Shown piece by piece: positions 4,029-63,640 of a stretch of DNA of 64,000 nucleotides. Origin of the DNA: a virus. The DNA lies in IMG/VR virus record IMGVR_UViG_3300031918_000730, positions 15,875 through 79,874 of that record; one strand, 5' to 3'. A program made the position numbers and the translations under genes. Under the pieces are notes generated by a model. It ran no database searches. It had not been told where the DNA came from and was given only the letters and a program-made list of their open reading frames with translations. Position 1 is the stretch's first letter; the number at the start of each line of letters is the position of its first letter.

Positions 4029-5888
4029 ATGGCTATCAGAGGACCGAGTTCAGGCGGGTTTAGAAACGACAGGGTCACTGATTTGACCCATAACCCGTTT
4101 TATTCAAACTTCGAAGACTTCAGAAGAGCATCTACAAGTAGAAAGGCAGAGGCTAAGAGGAATCAGATTGGTCAGTCGGAAGACTCCATCAATGATATTC
4201 TTGGCACCGCCTCAGTAGTTCTTTACAACTTCGGAAACAAAGACCCTCTGGATAGGCGTAAGGACTTAGCTGATAAGCTAACCACCCAATGGTCTGATCA
4301 GCTAAGGATCAGGTATTCGAACTACACTCGACTGGCTAAGCGCCCCGAGGTTCGATATGTACTTGAAACCATATGTAATGAAGCTATTGTCACTAACGAA
4401 TCTGAGCAGATAGTATCGCTCAAGATAAACGACAACTTCCCCGGAATTGCAATTGGTAATGCCACCAAGGTACAGTTGCAACAAGACTTCAATAACATGC
4501 TTCAGACTGTTATGAACTTCGACAACTTCGCATGGAAGCTGTTTAAGAAGTTTCTAATTGAAGGTGGAGTATTCTTCGAAGTCGGATACTCCGAGAAGAT
4601 GAACAAGATCACTGGACTAAGACTCCTACCTTCATACAATATGATTGTGGTTGTCGAAGATGGTGAAGTAGTTGGTTATCGTCAGATCATCGATAAGACC
4701 GCATACGATACTAATCGTCAGAACATGACCTATTACACAATGGGTGGAGATTTGACCAAGGATTGGGTTGACTATCACCCTAATGAAATACTATGGTGGG
4801 ATTACGACGAAAGAGGATTCGGTGGCATTAACGATAGGCTCTCATTCCTTGAGAATGCTCGTAAGGTTGCTAATCAGCTAAAGAACATTGAAGATTCAAT
4901 TGTTCGCTATAGAATCCTAAGAGGACACGAGAAGCGTGCATTCTACATCCCTACCGGAAATATGCCTCCAATTAAGGCCGAAGAACACCTTAGGAGACAG
5001 TCGGAAAATCTAAATCGCAGACTCTTCTACAATAGCGAAGACGGAACCATCGTAGGACTAGAAAAAGTCACTGCAATGATGGAAGACTATTACTTCGCAA
5101 TGCCAGAAGGTCAGAGTGCCGCAAAGATCGACACTATTCCAGCAGGCGCAAATCTAGGCGAAATCACTGACCTCAATTACTTCAAGCAGTTGCTTTATCA
5201 GGCACTATTGTTCCCTGCATCTCGCAGTGTGACTATGGCAGGACAGCAACAGGCACCAGCATCTCCCGGAAAACCCGGAGAGATTACTAGAGACGAAATA
5301 GTGCTCACTAGATTCATCGAACGAATCCAGCGATCATTCTCGACTCAGGTTGTAATTCCATTGTTCGTGATGTACTTGGAGACAATGAACAAGTATGACG
5401 AGAGCCTTAAGGATGAGAAGTTCTTCACTTGTAAGTTCACACAGTCTAACCTATTCAAACTATATAAAGAAGCTGAAGTAACCAACACAAGATTCGATAT
5501 TCTCGACAAGGCGGCTAAGTATATCGACGACGGTAGCGAAGGCCCTAATTCGATATTCGCCAAAGAATTCGTATTGAAGAAGTATTTCAATCTTAGTGAT
5601 GAAGAATTCGCTGAGAATCTTAGACTTATTCAACTAGAGAGACTCCAGACTGCCAGAAACATTTCTAAGCAGAAGGCCGTTGATAAGGAGAATATGGAAC
5701 TAGGTAACCCCGGAGATATGACAGGTGCTTCTGGCGGTGGTCAGTTCGGTGGTATGGGTGGTGAAGTGAATGGTATGGGTGGATCACCAGACGGCGAATT
5801 AGGCGCAGGTGAAGATCTACCTACCGACGACGAATTGAATAGCGGCGCAGAGGGAGAGGCACCAGCAACACCAGATGAGATAGGATAA
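4029..5888 (+). CDS. gp20: portal vertex protein (T4 gp20-like)
   Basis: Motifs NQLKNIEDSIVRYRILRGHEKRAFYIPTGNMP, MMEDYYF, GANLGEITDLNYF, EITRDEI; position before protease, scaffold and MCP. Confidence 0.95.
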   Translation: MAIRGPSSGGFRNDRVTDLTHNPFYSNFEDFRRASTSRKAEAKRNQIGQSEDSINDILGTASVVLYNFGNKDPLDRRKDLADKLTTQWSDQLRIRYSNYTRLAKRPEVRYVLETICNEAIVTNESEQIVSLKINDNFPGIAIGNATKVQLQQDFNNMLQTVMNFDNFAWKLFKKFLIEGGVFFEVGYSEKMNKITGLRLLPSYNMIVVVEDGEVVGYRQIIDKTAYDTNRQNMTYYTMGGDLTKDWVDYHPNEILWWDYDERGFGGINDRLSFLENARKVANQLKNIEDSIVRYRILRGHEKRAFYIPTGNMPPIKAEEHLRRQSENLNRRLFYNSEDGTIVGLEKVTAMMEDYYFAMPEGQSAAKIDTIPAGANLGEITDLNYFKQLLYQALLFPASRSVTMAGQQQAPASPGKPGEITRDEIVLTRFIERIQRSFSTQVVIPLFVMYLETMNKYDESLKDEKFFTCKFTQSNLFKLYKEAEVTNTRFDILDKAAKYIDDGSEGPNSIFAKEFVLKKYFNLSDEEFAENLRLIQLERLQTARNISKQKAVDKENMELGNPGDMTGASGGGQFGGMGGEVNGMGGSPDGELGAGEDLPTDDELNSGAEGEAPATPDEIG

Positions 5889-7721: not shown

Positions 7722-9053
7722 ATGTCAAATACACTATACTCTAAGCATGGTTCACTCATGCGCAAGTGGGCACCAGTCATCGAGTCGACTCAGGTCGGTC
7801 GTAAGGTTGAAGGCACCCAGCAGGCGGCAGTATTGTCTGTCTGTCTTGAGAACCAGTACAAGCTGAATAAGGGCTACTTGCCAGAATCTCAGAACGTGAC
7901 TTCTGATATGGCAACCTTCCAGCAGTACGCACTACCAATCGTTCGCCGTATGCTCCCAGAGCTTTTGGCAACCAACGTGACTCAGGTCCAGCCTTTGACT
8001 GGCCCTACCGGACTTGCATATGCAATGCGTTTTGCATACGACGACGGTAATCCATTGTATGATGGTAACGGTAACTTCATCGGAAACGAAATGGGTTACA
8101 ACACCATCAAGCCTCAGTTCACTGGCCGTGGTACTTCTGCCGCTCCTTCTGCTTTCACCACTGGACAGGGCGAATTGCTCTCCAACTACTCTGAAGTAGC
8201 TGGCCAGAATACTTTGCAGAACCTCGGTTCCGCAAATGCACCAGACGGTACTCAGATTGCTCGTGGTAAGTTGGTTGTTGAGTCGAAGGCTGTCAAGGCT
8301 GGAACTCGCGCCATCAAGACTGCTTACACTCTCGAACTCCAGCAGGATCTCGCCGCTGTTCACGGACAGGACATCGAGACTCTCATGATGGAAGGTTTGC
8401 AGTACGAACTTCAGCAGGAACTCGACCGCGAGTTGCTCATCAGAATGCGCTCTGCCGCAATCAACACTGCACTGGGTGGAGCCGCTCCATTCACCATCGA
8501 CGTGACCCCTAACGCAACCTCCGCAGGTAGCGTGCTTGCAGGTGACGGACGCTGGTCGCAGGAGAAGTTTGCAAACGTCGTGAATGCAATCATCGCCGCC
8601 GCTAACTACCTACGTCGCACCACTCGCCTTGGTCCGGGTAACTTTGCAATCGTCTCTCAGGACGTTGCAACTGCACTCCAGTCCTTGAACACTGGTGTCT
8701 TCACTGCTAACACTGCAGACGTTGACGGTACTGTAATGGGTATCAAGATTGGAACTCTCCACGGTTCCAAGATCGACATCTACGTCGATACCTTCGCAAG
8801 CAACAGCTACGCGCTCGTTGGTTACAAGGGTCAGAAGCCGGGACACGCTGGTATCATCTATCTTCCTTACATTCCTCTGGTCGTCCAGAAGACTGTCGGT
8901 TCCGAAGATGCATCGCCTCGTATCATCCTCAAGACTCGTTACGCAATCCTTGACAACTTGTTCGGTTCGGGCTTGTTCTACCGTGAGATTCGTTTCACTG
9001 GTCTGAACGGTTACTTCGGTAACGTGTTCGAGAACATCACCAACTTGTACTAA
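7722..9053 (+). CDS. gp23: major capsid protein (T4 gp23-like)
   Basis: KWAPVIE, VQPLTGPTGLAYAMR, TLELQQDLAAVHG, YLPYIPL, KTRY motifs; strong codon bias. Confidence 0.97.
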   Translation: MSNTLYSKHGSLMRKWAPVIESTQVGRKVEGTQQAAVLSVCLENQYKLNKGYLPESQNVTSDMATFQQYALPIVRRMLPELLATNVTQVQPLTGPTGLAYAMRFAYDDGNPLYDGNGNFIGNEMGYNTIKPQFTGRGTSAAPSAFTTGQGELLSNYSEVAGQNTLQNLGSANAPDGTQIARGKLVVESKAVKAGTRAIKTAYTLELQQDLAAVHGQDIETLMMEGLQYELQQELDRELLIRMRSAAINTALGGAAPFTIDVTPNATSAGSVLAGDGRWSQEKFANVVNAIIAAANYLRRTTRLGPGNFAIVSQDVATALQSLNTGVFTANTADVDGTVMGIKIGTLHGSKIDIYVDTFASNSYALVGYKGQKPGHAGIIYLPYIPLVVQKTVGSEDASPRIILKTRYAILDNLFGSGLFYREIRFTGLNGYFGNVFENITNLY

Positions 9054-10338: not shown

Positions 10339-10899
10339 TTAGACAGGAATACTGGGGAACGCATTTCCGAAGTAGGTGTTGAGTCCCTTATAGACATTCT
10401 TGATCACCAATAGTTCGGACGGCACAATTAGATTAGGGAACTCGTCTAGTATGCTGATGTTATCAACATCGCTACTGTCAGTTACAAATACACATGAATA
10501 CGATTCAGTTGCGAACATATCAACATATACAGTTACGAATTTATTCAATACTGCAATAGCGTCAGCTTCTTCGTCATATGAACCTGTAATCACGTCAATC
10601 ATGAACTCACGATCCGAATCATCTCCATTACAACTGATTGACTGTAAGGCAGTCGCAACATCTGGAGAGACTAATACAGAAACGAACATTCTATTCTTGC
10701 AATCACGAACAACCGAAGCCGCAGTTACTATCTGAGTGAATATCGTCTTAAATTTCTCCTGCGACCATCTTCCCATAAATGCTTCTCCGGGAGTCACATC
10801 GAGGATTTCAGGCTCACCTGCGAATGAATTTACGATACGTCCTAGTTCGAGAACTGCGGTAGTGTGTAGATCTAGGTTTTTTTCTTTTGTAGTTGTCAT
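10339..10899 (-). CDS. truncated major-capsid-protein paralog (approximately the A-domain only)
   Basis: Shares DVTP, GRWSQEKF, VSxDVATALQS, YVDxFA and GLNxYFGNxF, in order, with the MCP at 7722-9053. Confidence 0.85.
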   Translation of the reverse strand: MTTTKEKNLDLHTTAVLELGRIVNSFAGEPEILDVTPGEAFMGRWSQEKFKTIFTQIVTAASVVRDCKNRMFVSVLVSPDVATALQSISCNGDDSDREFMIDVITGSYDEEADAIAVLNKFVTVYVDMFATESYSCVFVTDSSDVDNISILDEFPNLIVPSELLVIKNVYKGLNTYFGNAFPSIPV

Positions 10900-39747: not shown

Positions 39748-40548
39748 ATGCGCATATTAGGACTTGACTTAAGTATTACATCCCCCGGCTTCTGCATAAT
39801 GGACGTTAATGAGGACGATGGATATAGAATCCGACAAATCGACCTTCATGGCTTCACGAAGACTGACAAGTGGAAGTTTGAAGGAGATGGCCTAATAATC
39901 CACCAATTCCCGAAAGACTATAACCAACACCCTTCACACTACAGACCTACACTGGTGTACGATATAGTGGAACCTTACCTGAAAGAGATTGACTATGTAG
40001 CCATCGAAGACTACGCTTTCGGTGCTAAGGGTAAGGTATTTGACTTGGCGGAATTCGCAGGGTCTATGAAAAACTACATGTACGATAGAAGAATACCTAT
40101 CAAGAAGTTCCCCCCTATGACAGTGAAGCTATGTGCGGCAGGTAGCGGAGCGGCTGACAAGGTACTCATGGGAATGAGCTTCAAGGCATCTAGCCTATCT
40201 AAGTTGGTAAATCCGTATTTGTTCATGCTCCCTGAGTACGATAACCCGCAAGAGGACTTGGTAGATGCAATCTATATGGCAAATACTCTAAGGGCTGAAA
40301 TATGCTACATGGCAACAGGAGCTTTTCCAGTTGATCTCGGAATGAATGTGAATAATTGCGCAACTGCAATTCTATTGGGTAAGAAGGGGGCTAAGACTAA
40401 GCCTTCAATTGAACATCCACTCATCACATTCGGAGCATTCACTAGAGTTAAGAAAGAGAAGAAGGTCAAGAAGAGTGACGCCGAGGTTGAAGTAAAGGTA
40501 TCTAAGAAACGAGAACCTAAGAAGAAGCTGATAGTGCCCAAGCAATAA
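39748..40548 (+). CDS. RuvC-like Holliday junction resolvase
   Basis: ILGLDLSITSPG, AIEDYAF, LAE, KLCAAGSGAADK, DLVDA. Confidence 0.85.
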   Translation: MRILGLDLSITSPGFCIMDVNEDDGYRIRQIDLHGFTKTDKWKFEGDGLIIHQFPKDYNQHPSHYRPTLVYDIVEPYLKEIDYVAIEDYAFGAKGKVFDLAEFAGSMKNYMYDRRIPIKKFPPMTVKLCAAGSGAADKVLMGMSFKASSLSKLVNPYLFMLPEYDNPQEDLVDAIYMANTLRAEICYMATGAFPVDLGMNVNNCATAILLGKKGAKTKPSIEHPLITFGAFTRVKKEKKVKKSDAEVEVKVSKKREPKKKLIVPKQ

Positions 40549-58278: not shown

Positions 58279-58626
58279 ATGAAGCTCGGGACATTTATAC
58301 AGAGGATTTTCTGCGAACCAGACGGGACTCCGTCGAATAAAAGACTAATCGCTAGTTATTCTGTATTGGTGTATTCGCTCGTGATGTTGTCTGCTTTTTT
58401 CTTAGCACTCCCTCTCACCGAGAGCGTAATTCATATGGCCGACGTATTACTCGGAAGCGCAATGGGTACTTATGTGGTTGGTAGATTTGCAGAAAAGAAG
58501 CCATTACTACAAGTCGAAGAACCTGAGCCAGAACCAGAGCCGACTCCTAAAAGAGTAAAGAAGGTAGTTGACACTGAAGAGGAAACTCCAGAAGAGTCAA
58601 CAGAAGATTCAGTCAAGAAACAGTAA
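58279..58626 (+). CDS. holin-like membrane protein
   Basis: Two TM segments after SNKR, charged C-terminal tail, late promoter at 58268-58273, next to the endolysin. Confidence 0.65.
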   Translation: MKLGTFIQRIFCEPDGTPSNKRLIASYSVLVYSLVMLSAFFLALPLTESVIHMADVLLGSAMGTYVVGRFAEKKPLLQVEEPEPEPEPTPKRVKKVVDTEEETPEESTEDSVKKQ

Positions 58627-58644: not shown

Positions 58645-59460
58645 ATGCGAATAACTGTACTCACCGTCTGCTATAACGAAGAATATCTAATTCGAGACTT
58701 TCTCGATCACTATCGAGGATTAGGCGTGAATCGTATTGTAGTGTACGATAACATGTCGACCGATAATACCGTTGCGATATGTAAAGAGTACGACAAAACA
58801 CACCAAGGTTGTAGTGTTGAGGTTGTGAACTACGACACTAACGGGCAAATTAGAGATGACGTATATCTTGAAATCAAGAATAACGCATGGAAGAAGTACA
58901 AGTCTGACTATTTCATCGTAGTTGACTGTGACGAATTCTTGGAAGTACCACTCACATGCGACGAAGATGCCGAAGACAATAAGAGACTCGTAAGGTATCT
59001 CGCAGGTATGAAGAAGGGATATGTCCTTCCGAAGGTACTCGGAGTCCAGATTGTAAATGATGATCGTGATGATATTGACATCAGCTTCGACAATGATACT
59101 AAGCAATGCGTAAGGGACGATACTTTCAATAAGAGATGTATCTTCAGTAGGGAATTGGTGCCTGTATATAGACCCGGATGTCACGCATTCTCAGTCGAGC
59201 CGAAGAACAGGGCCGCGCTAGAGGCATCCATTGCAGTAGAATCTACAGTGAAGCCTCTATACCTATTCCACCTCAAGTATATTGACCGTGAATACGTCAT
59301 CAAGCGACATGCTGAGTTCAAGACTAGATTGTCCGATTTCAATAAGAAGAACAATTACGGACATCAGTATACCATGGACGCTAAGGCAATCGGATTGAAA
59401 TTCGACTACCTGAAGAAGTACGCGACTACGCTTCTAGAAGTATTTGCTAAGGGATACTAA
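58645..59460 (+). CDS. glycosyltransferase family 2
   Basis: CYNEE, YDNMSTDNT, VDCDEF. Confidence 0.85.
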   Translation: MRITVLTVCYNEEYLIRDFLDHYRGLGVNRIVVYDNMSTDNTVAICKEYDKTHQGCSVEVVNYDTNGQIRDDVYLEIKNNAWKKYKSDYFIVVDCDEFLEVPLTCDEDAEDNKRLVRYLAGMKKGYVLPKVLGVQIVNDDRDDIDISFDNDTKQCVRDDTFNKRCIFSRELVPVYRPGCHAFSVEPKNRAALEASIAVESTVKPLYLFHLKYIDREYVIKRHAEFKTRLSDFNKKNNYGHQYTMDAKAIGLKFDYLKKYATTLLEVFAKGY

Positions 59461-60203
59461 TGCTAGATTTGACGTTAGTTAGCTGTAACTACAATACTCC
59501 AGCCCAGATAGAGACTATGTTGAAGTCTTGGGCTGTTCATAATGAAGAAGTATCTCGAAACTGCCTAATCATGGAGCATTCGAGCAATGACGACTCGATT
59601 GAATTCCTAAATTCGAGTGGAGTTCCATATGTTCGGAGCCGAGGCGCTGTTCATTATAGGGGGGTCGAGGCCGCACTTAGTTTAGTGAACACTAGGTACA
59701 TGCTACTAGTTGATTCAGACGTTGTATTCAATAAACCTCTCATGCCAGTGTTACAGCACTACATTGACAGTTCTATTCACGTCGCAGGTCATGTTGAAGG
59801 TGATCGAGGTGGATTCCTTTTGCATAAGAGAGTACATCCATGGTTCTGTTTCATCGACGTTGACTTCGTTGCACATCATAGTTTGAAATATGTGGACCTC
59901 CACAAGGTCAGAAAGACTAGATCAGAGGGTTTCTACGGAAACATACCAACTACCGACTTCCATCCAATTAAGAAGTATGACGTTGGAGCTACATTCTTGG
60001 AAGATGTAATGGGAGTTAATGGTAGAGTCCTGAACCACAACATAGAGGGGGATTTCTTCACTCACTTCGAAGGCATGTCGTGGAGGAAGAACACTGACAT
60101 TCAGCAGTTACTAGACGCCGCTAACGAAACAGACAAAAGATTTGAAGTGGAATACAAAAAATATATAAATGTAGATTTGAAAGGGTTTTTTAATGCGCGT
60201 TAG
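59460..60203 (+). CDS. glycosyltransferase family 2-like
   Basis: SCNYNT, LLVDSDV, HPWFCFID. Confidence 0.78.
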   Translation: MLDLTLVSCNYNTPAQIETMLKSWAVHNEEVSRNCLIMEHSSNDDSIEFLNSSGVPYVRSRGAVHYRGVEAALSLVNTRYMLLVDSDVVFNKPLMPVLQHYIDSSIHVAGHVEGDRGGFLLHKRVHPWFCFIDVDFVAHHSLKYVDLHKVRKTRSEGFYGNIPTTDFHPIKKYDVGATFLEDVMGVNGRVLNHNIEGDFFTHFEGMSWRKNTDIQQLLDAANETDKRFEVEYKKYINVDLKGFFNAR

Positions 60204-60978
60204 TTATGTTCAGCCGATATTTGCACCTAATGAAGAAATGACGATCAGGAATCTAACAAGTCTGAAATCATTCTTCGACTATTACGAAAGCCATAATTAC
60301 AATTTCAAGTGTGTATTTGGTGGATATTCTAGTGACGATGCTAACTGGGATCGCATCTCAAAGTATATTCAATCTAGAAACAAACAAGCTATCATCTACA
60401 GATTCGATAAGAACTATGGAAAGGCTCATGTCGTAAATCACTTAGTGAGTGCATTTCTAGACGATGAGACGTATTTCCTTACTGCAGACTCAGACATTAT
60501 ATACAAGATGGACGAGGATGACATAATTAGTAGACTGATCGAAGCGTTCGCAGAAGCAAATAGGCTAAATCTAACACCCGCATTGATCTCCTTATTTCAG
60601 GAGGTCAATAATTGCCAGATGCTTGAGTTGTGCTATGAGAATAGGTACTACTATCACGGAGAATACAACTTCGAAATGTTCTGTCACCCGAATGGGAGTG
60701 GTGGAGTTGCGGGTGGGTGTCTATTCATTTCTAAGAAATTCTGGGATCGAGTTGGCGGCTATAGGGTACTTGGAGTATATGCAGGTGATGACGCTAACCT
60801 GATGCAGGACGCATATAACAACGGCTACAAATTCCTAATGTCGAATTCAGTGAGATGCATACACCCAAATGAGACGATGCCAGCATATAGGGAATGGAAG
60901 ATTAAGGTGTGTCCTACTGTTCAGGAGTTGGATGTAGCTGTAGACGATGCCAACAATTTCTGGAAAATGAGGGGCTAA
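60193..60978 (+). CDS. glycosyltransferase family 2-like
   Basis: NYGKA, TADSDI, GGCLFI..KFWDRVGGY, YAGDD. Confidence 0.8.
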   Translation: MRVSYVQPIFAPNEEMTIRNLTSLKSFFDYYESHNYNFKCVFGGYSSDDANWDRISKYIQSRNKQAIIYRFDKNYGKAHVVNHLVSAFLDDETYFLTADSDIIYKMDEDDIISRLIEAFAEANRLNLTPALISLFQEVNNCQMLELCYENRYYYHGEYNFEMFCHPNGSGGVAGGCLFISKKFWDRVGGYRVLGVYAGDDANLMQDAYNNGYKFLMSNSVRCIHPNETMPAYREWKIKVCPTVQELDVAVDDANNFWKMRG

Positions 60979-60986
60979 ATACTCAA

Positions 60987-61508
60987 ATGCCATACAGTCA
61001 TCCAGCACACTACACTAATGTAGTAAACCTAATCAGAACAAACTTCAACCCTAGCGAGACTTCAATTATTGATATTGGATGTGGCGCAGGTGTATATAGA
61101 GATCTCCTTCCAGAATATGTAATGGACGGAATTGAAGTATATGAGAAGTATATTAACGACTTCAAGTTGCGCGAGAAGTATCGCACAATCTTCAACGAAG
61201 ACGTTGTCGAGTTCAAGTTCACAGGTAAGAAGTATACTCTCGCAATCATGGGCGACATCTTAGAACACCTCAGCGTCGAAGATGCTAAGAAGGTTCTGAA
61301 TGCAATCAAGAAGGCAAATATTTCCCTCATTGTTCAGGTTCCTTACCTATATGAGCAGGGGGTTTATGACGGAAATGTACACGAGATCCATCTACAGCCA
61401 GACCTTACCCATGAAGTATTTCTGTCGAGATATGAGGAATATGGATTCAGTTTCCTAGTAGAGGATTCTGTTTGTGGGGCTTACTATATTTTCCGTAAGG
61501 GAGAGTAA
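60987..61508 (+). CDS. class I SAM-dependent methyltransferase; start revised to 60987
   Basis: IIDIGCGAG, GDILEHL; CTAAATA 5 nt upstream. Confidence 0.85.
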   Translation: MPYSHPAHYTNVVNLIRTNFNPSETSIIDIGCGAGVYRDLLPEYVMDGIEVYEKYINDFKLREKYRTIFNEDVVEFKFTGKKYTLAIMGDILEHLSVEDAKKVLNAIKKANISLIVQVPYLYEQGVYDGNVHEIHLQPDLTHEVFLSRYEEYGFSFLVEDSVCGAYYIFRKGE

Positions 61509-61510
61509 CA

Positions 61511-61744
61511 ATGAAGACGTTAACTAGATTTAAGAAGTGGGCTGTTCGTAAGATTTTCGGAGTAAAGTACGGAATCGACATCGAACTAGTAGGTACAGTA
61601 GCCTTCATCAGAGTCGACTGTGGATATATGCCACCTTCTAAAGCACAAGAACATACCCTGAGATATGCTAAGATATTCACTGAGGAAGTTAGGATTGCTA
61701 TGGGGGTAACCCATTGCCAATTTGTACCATACACCCGAGGATAA
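61511..61744 (+). CDS. 77-aa protein carrying the portal clip motif
   Basis: VDCGYMPPSKAQEH versus portal IPTGNMPPIKAEEH; GGGAG SD. Confidence 0.65.
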   Translation: MKTLTRFKKWAVRKIFGVKYGIDIELVGTVAFIRVDCGYMPPSKAQEHTLRYAKIFTEEVRIAMGVTHCQFVPYTRG

Positions 61745-61750
61745 TCTGAC

Positions 61751-63640
61751 ATGAAGCGTCCGGTAATTTATTATCACCTATGGAGAGGCGGAGATTGGCG
61801 TGCGGTCAATGCGAGGATTTTTTCGGCATTAGCCGAGTCAGGTCTAGCCGACTACGCAGATACTATTCACATTTGCGTGAATGATGGTGACAGTACATCT
61901 GATATTGAATTATACGGACTGCCTGAAGATAAGGTACTGTTTCGGCAGGTAAAGAATACTGGCTCGGAATGGCCTACGCTCGAAGCACTCTACGAGGATT
62001 ACGTCTCTGAGTCAGATGTCCCCGTCATGTATCTCCATAGCAAGGGCGCTAGTTACCCTGACGGCGATCCTAGAGTCGACGGAGTGCGCTCATGGGTGGA
62101 TGGACTCCTCTACTACACGGTAGAGGACTGGAGGGCCTGCCTCTCGATGATGCGCCTTGGTGCATTGGCTGTAGGTGCCAACAAAAGAGACACTCCAACT
62201 GTACATTACTCTGGAAATTTCTGGTGGATTTCTGCAGATGCACTTAAAGCACTGCCCAATCCGAAACTACAGGACCAGAGCCACAATAACCGATTCGGAG
62301 CGGAATTCTGGATCGGCCATTTAGGTACTGTCAACCTAAAGAACAACGGACTTGTAGGATTCGACTATCTTAAGAAGATTCCTCGTTCGCTATATGAAAA
62401 GCCACTAAAGATTAGTCGGAAGTTGAAGAATCTCTGCATTCATGTAGACGATAGAATGGATTTAACCCCGTTCATTAATTCTGGACTACCTTACGATACA
62501 TACCGCAACGGACTTAATTCGTATGCGAGAACGTACATAGAATACATCATCGCTAATTACGAAGACTTACCTGAATATACCTATTTCATTAGGACTAGTC
62601 AGGTAATTGCACATTCACCTAATATCTTCGACTTAGTCGAGCACTGGAATCCTAACGGATTCGAGTTCATGTCTAAGGGGATACTCGACTGTAATGGCAA
62701 TGGTGGGCCTCATCACCCCGGACTTCCAGTAGAGAGATTCTGGAATGCAATTTACCCTGAGCAATCAGCACCAGAGTCTTATCGATTTGGTGCAGGTGCT
62801 CAGTTTGCAGTGCATCGTGACAAAATCCTACTCAATTCACTAGACTTCTACATTGACTTGCTTGGTTTGATTTCTACTAGGATTAATCCTGTTGAAGATT
62901 TCATACTTGAACGTCTATGGGGGCTAATATTTGCTGAGAAGGAAGCAACGGTATCTGATTTTGACTTAGAGGTATTCATCTTCAACTACGGATTGATGGA
63001 TAACGCTTTGAAGATGCGCCAGCAGTTCTATGAAGTTGGCGTTAATGCAGTAATTCTCGACAGTGACAGCGGAAATCCTGTACCTGAACTCGACTATGTA
63101 CACTCGTTCGACAATATATTCTACAGTGGACTGTGGAACGAGGCTCTTAATTTGTTCCAAGGTAGCCACATGATGGTAGTTACCTCAGACGTAGAAATTC
63201 CTGATCCTAAGAAATTGGTGAATAACGCCAAGGTGTTTTACAAGTCAGACAAGGCTTGGATCTACGCACCTAACGTGAATTACACTTTCTGGGAATATGA
63301 ACTGTCGGCTCTTGAGAATTACTCCAGAGACATTAAGCTGGTTCCAAATACTGACGGAATGTGTTGGATGCTAAGTTCAGATGCAGTATATTCAGTTGGC
63401 AATATAGACAATGAAATCAATAAGATTGGATTCGGCGTCGACCTACTAGCCGCAATGTTTGCGAAGAAGGCTGGTAAATTGGTTGGTCGAGATTACTCGA
63501 TTACAGTTAAGCACCCACAAACAAGATCATACGACAGTTCGGATGCAGAGACTCAGGAGTTTGAGTGGATCAGTAGTCTAGGATACTTGCAAGAGTACGT
63601 CCCCTACCGGAACCACTACGCGATGAGCTTCTTGCGCTAG
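61751..63640 (+). CDS. multidomain glycan-related protein (GT-like + DUF3431-like + GT2-like)
   Basis: YLHSKG/HYSGNFWW/AEFWI; YIIANYEDLP...GAQFAV...LERLW; C-terminal SGLWNEA...TSDV. Confidence 0.7.
   Translation: MKRPVIYYHLWRGGDWRAVNARIFSALAESGLADYADTIHICVNDGDSTSDIELYGLPEDKVLFRQVKNTGSEWPTLEALYEDYVSESDVPVMYLHSKGASYPDGDPRVDGVRSWVDGLLYYTVEDWRACLSMMRLGALAVGANKRDTPTVHYSGNFWWISADALKALPNPKLQDQSHNNRFGAEFWIGHLGTVNLKNNGLVGFDYLKKIPRSLYEKPLKISRKLKNLCIHVDDRMDLTPFINSGLPYDTYRNGLNSYARTYIEYIIANYEDLPEYTYFIRTSQVIAHSPNIFDLVEHWNPNGFEFMSKGILDCNGNGGPHHPGLPVERFWNAIYPEQSAPESYRFGAGAQFAVHRDKILLNSLDFYIDLLGLISTRINPVEDFILERLWGLIFAEKEATVSDFDLEVFIFNYGLMDNALKMRQQFYEVGVNAVILDSDSGNPVPELDYVHSFDNIFYSGLWNEALNLFQGSHMMVVTSDVEIPDPKKLVNNAKVFYKSDKAWIYAPNVNYTFWEYELSALENYSRDIKLVPNTDGMCWMLSSDAVYSVGNIDNEINKIGFGVDLLAAMFAKKAGKLVGRDYSITVKHPQTRSYDSSDAETQEFEWISSLGYLQEYVPYRNHYAMSFLR

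Follow-up and report, generated by a model that had tools for sequence, protein, structure and literature searches.

The 77-aa protein encoded at positions 61511 to 61744 of the window carries a likeness of the tip of the gp20-type portal clip, and it may act as a soluble mimic of the clip tip and sequester a protein that binds the clip, most likely the large terminase (TerL). We put the probability of this functional reading at roughly 40%; the resemblance to the portal clip tip is itself real but local. The protein would be an instance of a phage mimicking its own virion protein, with a function that we infer from that likeness. The window (the whole stretch of 64,000 nucleotides that was analyzed) comes from an IMG/VR virus record of 79.9 kb, whose completeness is estimated at 26%. 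The DNA of the window is present in several peat metagenomes, and no RNA dataset carrying it was found among public runs.

The initial annotation of this DNA had singled out the mini-gene for a motif shared with the portal of the same phage, and its description agrees with the sequence. The open reading frame encodes 77 aa and has its own Shine-Dalgarno sequence, the two quoted 21-mers occur in the mini-protein and in the portal, the 11-mer within them is identical at 8 of 11 positions, and the distance between the two genes, given as ~56 kb, is about 56.5 kb. Family annotation of the neighboring genes likewise places the mini-gene inside a glycosylation cluster. The mini-gene, the portal gene, and their matching parts are located as follows.

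61511..61744, + strand: gene of the 77-aa portal clip-tip mini-protein (open reading frame, start codon, Shine-Dalgarno sequence, at least 13 homologs)
61497..61505, + strand: Shine-Dalgarno sequence of the mini-gene, AAGGGAGAG, within the 3' end of the methyltransferase gene (read from the sequence)
61607..61678, + strand: portal-matching segment of the mini-protein, residues 33-56 (end of β2, loop, first helix), equivalent to T4 gp20 285-308 by hhalign
61622..61654, + strand: core 11-mer G38-H48, G-x-M-P-P-x-K-A-x-E-H, in which M40 corresponds to T4 M292 and K44 to T4 K296
4029..5888, + strand: portal gene, gp20 type, 619 aa (PF07230 Portal_T4, 4.4e-81; phrog_213, 2.8e-84)
4941..5012, + strand: portal residues 305-328, clip strand, tip loop, and start of α6 (T4 285-308; six-frame match of the family profile, E 1.1e-4)

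A GGAG stands 7 nt 5' of the ATG of the mini-gene, which starts 2 nt past the stop codon of the upstream methyltransferase gene (61506-61508) and ends 6 nt before the gene of a 629-aa protein. An antisense open reading frame of 101 aa (61447-61752, − strand) covers the entire mini-gene; it is without support, and the selection pattern matches the + strand frame.

The window portal aligns with the T4 gp20 structures 3JA7 and 6UZC at 1e-36. Set against this portal by BLASTP, the mini-protein shows 9 identities over 20 positions, with an E value of 5e-4 for that single comparison. This lone pair is modest evidence, because an all-against-all reading of the window could yield such a match by chance. 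The family-level evidence, by comparison, is decisive. When the 13-member small family (A4) was aligned by hhalign with 19 diverse gp20 portals (A3), residues 33-56 of the small protein fell on portal residues 305-328 with a probability of 94.5% and an E value of 7.8e-8. The score was 53.1, against 13.6 ± 2.4 (maximum, 22.6) over 200 column shuffles of A4; it was 50.6 when the most portal-like member was left out, and the reversed profile scored 12.6. The portal was the best non-self match of the family HMM among the 586 six-frame open reading frames of at least 40 aa in the window (E 2.6e-4; next match, 0.078). Six-frame searches found one mini-gene each in the window's own record and in G004, a complete 306-kb relative, and the sole other match was the portal clip tip (E 1.1e-4 and 3.6e-4, respectively). 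Among 177,635 PDB sequences, gp20 portals were the top three matches, over the same segment and at an E of 0.3, and PF07230 alone among 24,736 Pfam families had matches to family members at an E of ≤10, being reached by 3 of the 13 members and by each only at an E of ≥0.085.

A chance resemblance, or an open reading frame without function, is extremely unlikely on these grounds. The pairwise match is short, and the HMM-versus-sequence E values for PDB (0.3) and Pfam (0.085) lie above threshold, yet the profile-profile score stands 16 sd above the column shuffles and the portal is the top match in four independent search spaces. A nonfunctional open reading frame would also be hard to reconcile with the dN/dS of 0.13 between two close homologs of the mini-gene, which indicates purifying selection, or with a length and a hydrophobic pattern that are kept across at least 13 sequences.

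The family motif reads [IV]-D-x-G-x-[ML]-P-P-x-[KR]-A-x-E-[HY], and the same pattern is conserved in the gp20-type portal family. The initial annotation had stated that its idea would fail if the motif were not conserved among homologs of the small protein. Across the 13 homologs compared, which are 33 to 78% identical, it is conserved: G is present in 11, M or L in all 13, the two prolines in 12 and 11, K or R in all 13, A in 11, E in 10, and H, Y, or F in 12. The residues conserved alike in both families are M/L at T4 position 292, P at 293, K/R at 296, A at 297, and H/Y at 300, and T4 positions 291 and 295 are variable in portals and in mini-proteins alike. No covariation was seen between the motif of a mini-protein and the portal of the same phage; in G004, L and Y of the mini-protein stand opposite M and H of the portal.

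The confident alignment to portals spans only about 24 to 26 of the 77 residues. Over these, the gp20 clip signature of strand, tip loop, and α6 (D-x-G-x-M-P-x-x-K-A-x-E-H/Y) is recovered by hhalign, by the conserved columns, and by the order of secondary-structure elements. The window mini-protein has no match to PF07230 at an E of ≤0.1 and so falls short of the Pfam gathering threshold for the portal domain of about 430 positions. Likewise, the further two clip strands and the inner clip loop, with the equivalents of T4 R338 and K342, are not found in it, a forced full-length alignment showing a 12-residue deletion at the clip hairpin, and its 77 residues do not make up the wing, stem, clip, and crown of a dodecameric channel. 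The mini-protein is therefore not a portal.

The family to which it belongs consists of proteins of 59 to 79 aa from uncultured T4-like jumbo phages, is rare (about ten 90% clusters among 15 billion proteins), and has no named member. A word-indexed search retrieved two homologs of 77 aa with 70 to 78% identity, an exhaustive HMMER search of 1.8 billion representatives added eight further small homologs of 59 to 76 aa, and scans of contigs added the mini-gene loci L002 to L005 and L008 to L013. The exhaustive search gave no fused or longer form of the mini-protein; a match of 4807 aa in it (P0010) was rejected as spurious, being a low-complexity acidic protein. Scans of viral contigs with P0009 and P0011 returned nothing, and the scan with P0007 only found G004 again. 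No family fitting the mini-protein was present in Pfam, PHROGs, or NCBIfam, and the ESM Atlas gave no usable match. The cultured phages in INPHARED are without the mini-gene: megablast of the locus gave no match there, and tblastn of three family members gave nothing below an E of 1.

The mini-gene is real and fast evolving but constrained. The mini-proteins of the window phage and G004 share 42% identity; the corresponding values are 64 to 78% for the flanking genes and 83% for the portal, which makes the mini-gene the fastest to change in its neighborhood. Fast change together with purifying selection is what one would expect of a protein taking part in an interaction under pressure. The best-conserved parts of the family are a K-P-G-I-D-I-E hairpin and a C-terminal F-V-P-Y strand, neither of which is portal-like; they may represent a second interface or just the protein core.

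The AlphaFold2 model, computed from the 13-sequence alignment, has a pLDDT of 83.9, with values of ≥91 over residues 21-77. It presents a low-confidence basic N-terminal helix (2-15), which is missing from the family members of 59 to 60 aa, a hairpin (22-27 and 30-36), a loop (37-41), a helix (42-55), a kink followed by a short helix (58-64), and a strand (68-74). In this model the motif lies in the strand at 30-36, the loop at 37-41, and the helix at 42-55, which is the order of clip strand, tip, and α6 in the portal. The initial annotation had also named a different predicted fold as evidence against its proposal, and on this point the model divides: the strand-loop-helix is locally as in the clip, but the fold as a whole is predicted to be a generic, self-contained αββαβ unit and not the clip topology. 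The best structural neighbor of the model had a Z of 8.2 (rmsd 2.2 over 73 residues), and many unrelated entries had a Z of 5 to 7, which is the background range of the tool. Common αββαβ domains compared with it include the C-terminal domain of CDF transporters, the N-domains of RimP and ApbC, and the ring-building motif of type III secretion systems. Foldseek against PDB and BFVD returned nothing at an E of ≤1e-3, the best E value being 5e-3.

The likeness to the portal probably reflects descent from an old fragment of a portal gene, comprising the end of α5, the clip strand, and α6, and not pure convergence; perhaps the mini-protein was later matched to the portal again. Two observations point to portal-fragment descent. 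The divergent member P0012 is identical to the window portal at 16 of 24 positions (E 5e-9), and its residues 3-52 align to a different gp20 portal, starting at the end of stem α5 and running through α6, with 23 identities over 56 positions (E 8e-9). In addition, when hhalign was forced to a long alignment, the full mini-protein was colinear with portal residues 271-361 except for a deletion of the clip hairpin, confidence being limited to the tip block.

In T4, the clip comprises gp20 residues 279-358, and N291, M292, R295, and K296 at its protruding tip face and contact the terminase gp17 (Sun et al., PMC4493910). The double mutants N291A-M292A and R295A-K296A abolish packaging, M292I makes packaging initiation cold sensitive, and R338 and K342 are DNA-facing basic residues of the inner clip loop (PMC4493910). 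According to the account given there of Lin, Rao & Black 1999, packaging is inhibited by a 24-aa gp20 peptide (residues 288-311), which binds gp17 (PMC4493910). Once packaging is over, gp13 inserts its C-terminal arm between neighboring α6 helices, and the arm and acidic helices of gp13 bind α6 and R295/K296, with which gp13 forms salt bridges; in a misassembled gp20/gp14/gp13 complex, gp14 touches N291, R295, K296, and H300 (PMC12929587). The initial annotation was thus correct in assigning the shared segment to the part of the clip that contacts terminase and neck proteins (PMC4493910, PMC12929587).

Residues 36-59 of the mini-protein are the positional equivalent of the T4 peptide 288-311, and 21 of these 24 positions lie inside the confidently aligned block. 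The equivalents of M292, P293, K296, A297, E299, and H300 are kept, those of N291 and R295 are lost, and the mini-protein differs from the peptide in being natural, genome encoded, predicted to be folded, and from a distant lineage; the correspondence between the two is one of sequence.

The mini-protein retains the docking epitope but has no wing or crown, none of the elements that line the channel, and no inner clip loop for contacting DNA. With the epitope kept and the channel parts discarded, the simplest reading is that of a competitor for whatever binds the clip tip. The initial annotation had proposed either a portal decoy or a regulator that titrates terminase or neck proteins; its interpretation finds partial support, and titration appears to be the version that fits best. 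The mini-protein would be a free-standing miniature of the docking tip of the portal, in which a three-stranded sheet bears the loop-helix signature between β2 and the helix. As a monomeric, soluble stand-in, it would occupy the clip-binding surface of its partner, most likely a gp17-type large terminase, and by competing with the portal it could hold back, time, or bias the start of packaging, in its own phage or in a co-infecting relative. TerL is the best candidate because a peptide of just that segment suffices for binding to gp17, and a monomer can present it.

The TerL gene is absent from the window's record. G004 encodes a gp17-type TerL (E 1e-43 to T4 gp17) with the homologous acidic helix-loop-helix region, and its mini-gene (at about 35 kb), portal gene (about 90 kb), and TerL gene (about 136 kb) are unlinked. 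Complex prediction of the G004 TerL with the G004 mini-protein gave a score of 0.00, that is, no answer, and is no evidence on binding either way. TerL homologs in this phage group (the set of P0064, P0065, P0082, and P0083) include several of about 1000 aa with a LAGLIDADG (PF14528) intein-like insertion and others that are split into N- and C-terminal halves.

Several points count against a clip-tip mimic directed at terminase. Only about a third of the mini-protein is portal-like and its predicted fold is not the clip topology, the best-conserved parts of the family lie outside that block, so that its main function may be elsewhere, and a phage inhibitor of its own terminase needs an extra assumption on timing, dose, or specificity. 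It also leaves unexplained why the mini-gene sits in sugar-modification operons of two phage groups, away from the packaging genes. In the window, this operon contains the following genes.

58645-59460, 59460-60203, and 60193-60978, + strand: three GT2-type glycosyltransferase genes, upstream part of the glycan operon (PF00535, phrog_13126, NCBIfam)
60987..61508, + strand: SAM-dependent methyltransferase gene, directly upstream of the mini-gene in the same operon (Pfam methyltransferase domains, NCBIfam Pse_Me-ase-like)
61751..63640, + strand: gene of the 629-aa multidomain glycosyltransferase-like protein (DUF3431; PF11913, 3.9e-12), 6 nt downstream of the mini-gene

The look-alikes of the 629-aa protein in the Atlas are GT2, RgpF, and GT25-like proteins. 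The order of mini-gene and 629-aa gene is kept in L002, L005 (G004), L008, L009, and L011. In L003 and L004, which belong to a different T4-like group, a 60-aa version of the mini-gene closes an operon with C-methyltransferase, RmlD-GNAT, and GT2 genes upstream, its start codon and the stop codon of a DegT aminotransferase gene overlapping. In the window, the methyltransferase ATG is preceded at a distance of 5 nt by a TAAATA box, which L005 (G004) shares. It is compatible with late expression and may mark late, nearly leaderless transcripts; its conservation could be coding driven, because the box overlaps the end of the upstream coding region.

Two features may bear on host defense. The same phage keeps a shortened copy of another virion protein, and this earlier claim holds on the evidence of BLASTP.

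10339-10899, − strand: truncated major capsid protein paralog, 185 aa (BLASTP E 4e-15, 30% identity to major capsid protein residues 256-439; phrog_138, 1.5e-6)
7722-9053: major capsid protein

Portals are sensed by defense proteins of the Avs4 type, as the initial annotation had stated, the sensors in question being Avs4 and Avs11 (bioRxiv 10.64898/2026.01.04.697583).

An anti-defense decoy or trap would use these circumstances: the mini-protein would imitate the portal toward a portal sensor, occupying it without activating it or soaking it up, as DSAD1 does for the tail-tube sensor DSR2. DSAD1, which "mimics TTP to trap DSR2" (PMC10973363), TTP being the tail tube protein, is a precedent, and the fast evolution and patchy distribution of the mini-gene as well as the shortened capsid protein copy would suit such a role. 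We regard it as unlikely, all the same. Avs sensors are described as wrapping extended surfaces of a whole target fold and not short motifs (bioRxiv 10.64898/2026.01.04.697583), whereas the portal-like part here is an epitope of roughly 24 residues on a different scaffold, and this weakens the specific idea of an Avs4 decoy. Moreover, a mimic faithful enough for such a sensor to bind might also activate it. A sensor reading short motifs, in the manner of Lit or CapRel, would be a better match, but no such sensor is known for the portal clip. A regulator of neck assembly or head completion, which would bind the gp13-type portal adaptor or another late clip partner and chaperone or delay neck attachment, draws on the same T4 contacts, namely, those of the gp13 arm and acidic helices with α6 and R295/K296 and those of gp14 with N291, R295, K296, and H300 (PMC12929587), and on the late-type TAAATA box ahead of the operon segment that holds the mini-gene. 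It seems very unlikely, since the gp13 arm needs a groove between the α6 helices of two adjacent subunits, which a monomer cannot offer unless it oligomerizes, and the basic equivalent of R295 is not conserved in the mini-protein family.

The surroundings of the mini-gene suggest yet another role, as a small adaptor, acceptor, or specificity subunit of the glycan pathway, in which the clip-like segment would be inherited or convergent and have no part in packaging. The tight embedding between the methyltransferase gene and the glycosyltransferase-like gene, the retention of the 629-aa neighbor in five of the loci, the placement of the most conserved family residues outside the portal-like block, and the fact that the unrelated operon of L003 and L004 also concerns sugar modification all speak for it, and the occurrence in glycan operons of two independent architectures, for which neither a packaging nor a decoy role accounts, keeps alive the possibility that the main job of the protein lies in that pathway. 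Such an accessory is nonetheless quite unlikely: it explains neither why the positions that contact terminase and neck proteins are the very ones conserved, within the same range of substitutions, nor the drift of one member to near-identity with the portal helix, and no known family of glycosylation accessories was matched in Pfam, NCBIfam, or PHROGs. A broader conjecture, which we likewise hold to be improbable, would join this context to the clip-tip mimic. Soluble mimics of the portal docking tip would then be a general class of jumbo-phage proteins that come from independent mini-genes under selection, copy the portal epitope for binding of terminase and neck, and act on the packaging checkpoint, here wired into late glycan operons, where they would hold terminase off the portal, or shield terminase or the adaptor from host sensors, until glycosylation of the virion or envelope has run. 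If true, packaging and glycosylation, two processes without a known link, would be coupled. The repeated placement in sugar-modification operons is in any case an unexplained link worth following.

Returning to the clip-tip mimic, its closest counterpart is the T4 gp20 clip itself (residues 279-358; PF07230; 3JA7, 6UZC), with which the family shares the signature over about 24 columns and the order of strand, tip loop, and helix, one member aligning further back into the end of stem helix α5. In contrast to portals of about 520 to 620 aa, the 77-aa mini-protein is without the second stem helix, the tunnel loop, and the basic residues of the inner clip loop, and it adds two strands of its own, one in an N-terminal hairpin and one at the C terminus. 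DSAD1 of SPbeta-like phages is similarly a small phage protein that imitates a conserved virion protein of its own phage (PMC10973363). The two are without sequence relationship and imitate different virion proteins, and target and effect have been demonstrated for DSAD1, whereas those of the mini-protein are putative.

Small proteins that redirect or block packaging are encoded by phage satellites, for example, SaPI Ppi, which acts on the small terminase. Packaging-interference proteins of this type differ from the mini-protein in being satellite encoded, in targeting TerS, and in not being portal look-alikes, and no homology to them was found. A search of the literature found no phage paper on natural portal mimics or portal decoys.

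The portal clip tip is the single docking site of the packaging motor and later of the neck. A natural, folded copy of this docking epitope would be a built-in competitor at a central checkpoint of head assembly, one that has so far been imitated only by the synthetic T4 peptide. If the mini-protein binds terminase, it would represent a new type of packaging regulator or a weapon between phages and would offer a tool for probing the docking of motor and portal. If it binds a host sensor instead, the principle of DSAD1, by which a mimic of the phage's own virion protein blinds immunity, would extend to portals.

Further observations were made on the loci of the mini-gene. The glycosyltransferase cassette upstream of it varies among close relatives (L012, L013, and L002:37-984), whereas the block from the mini-gene onward is constant, so that the upstream region resembles a hypervariable glycan cassette whose right-hand border is fixed. 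As read from translations of its open reading frames, the variable cassette holds GT2, GT25-like, and GT11-like genes and a 315-aa protein without a family match. The sequence CTAAATA(C/A)TCAAATG, a T4-late-like box, occurs at 60974-60989 of the window and at 9464-9479 of L005, and a similar CATAAATA sits before position 58279.

The 60-aa mini-gene of L003 and L004 faces a convergent gene for a RuvC-like Holliday junction resolvase (phrog_159, E 1e-19; L003 10182-10895, − strand; L004 6939-7652, − strand), the two overlapping by 8 nt. Linkage to RuvC as a general feature was rejected, the RuvC-like gene of the window being located at 39748-40548, about 21 kb off. Two to four genes 3' of the mini-gene, relatives encode an HNH endonuclease (PF01844, 6e-15; L005 12483-13058, L002 3493-4068). 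They also encode a sigma-70-like factor with regions 2 and 4 (L005 13336-14061, L002 4322-5071); the window ends before the homologous point. The contig of L002 (24,937 bp) is also L022: it is viral in IMG/VR and is binned as well in a metagenome-assembled genome labeled Ignavibacteria bacterium, which either points weakly to the host or results from a binning artifact. The glycan region of the window opens with a 115-aa protein (58279-58626, + strand) that has a hydrophobic segment and an acidic tail; its homolog in G004 comes after a gene read as M15 peptidase-like from its translation, and it is possibly a lysis-associated membrane protein.
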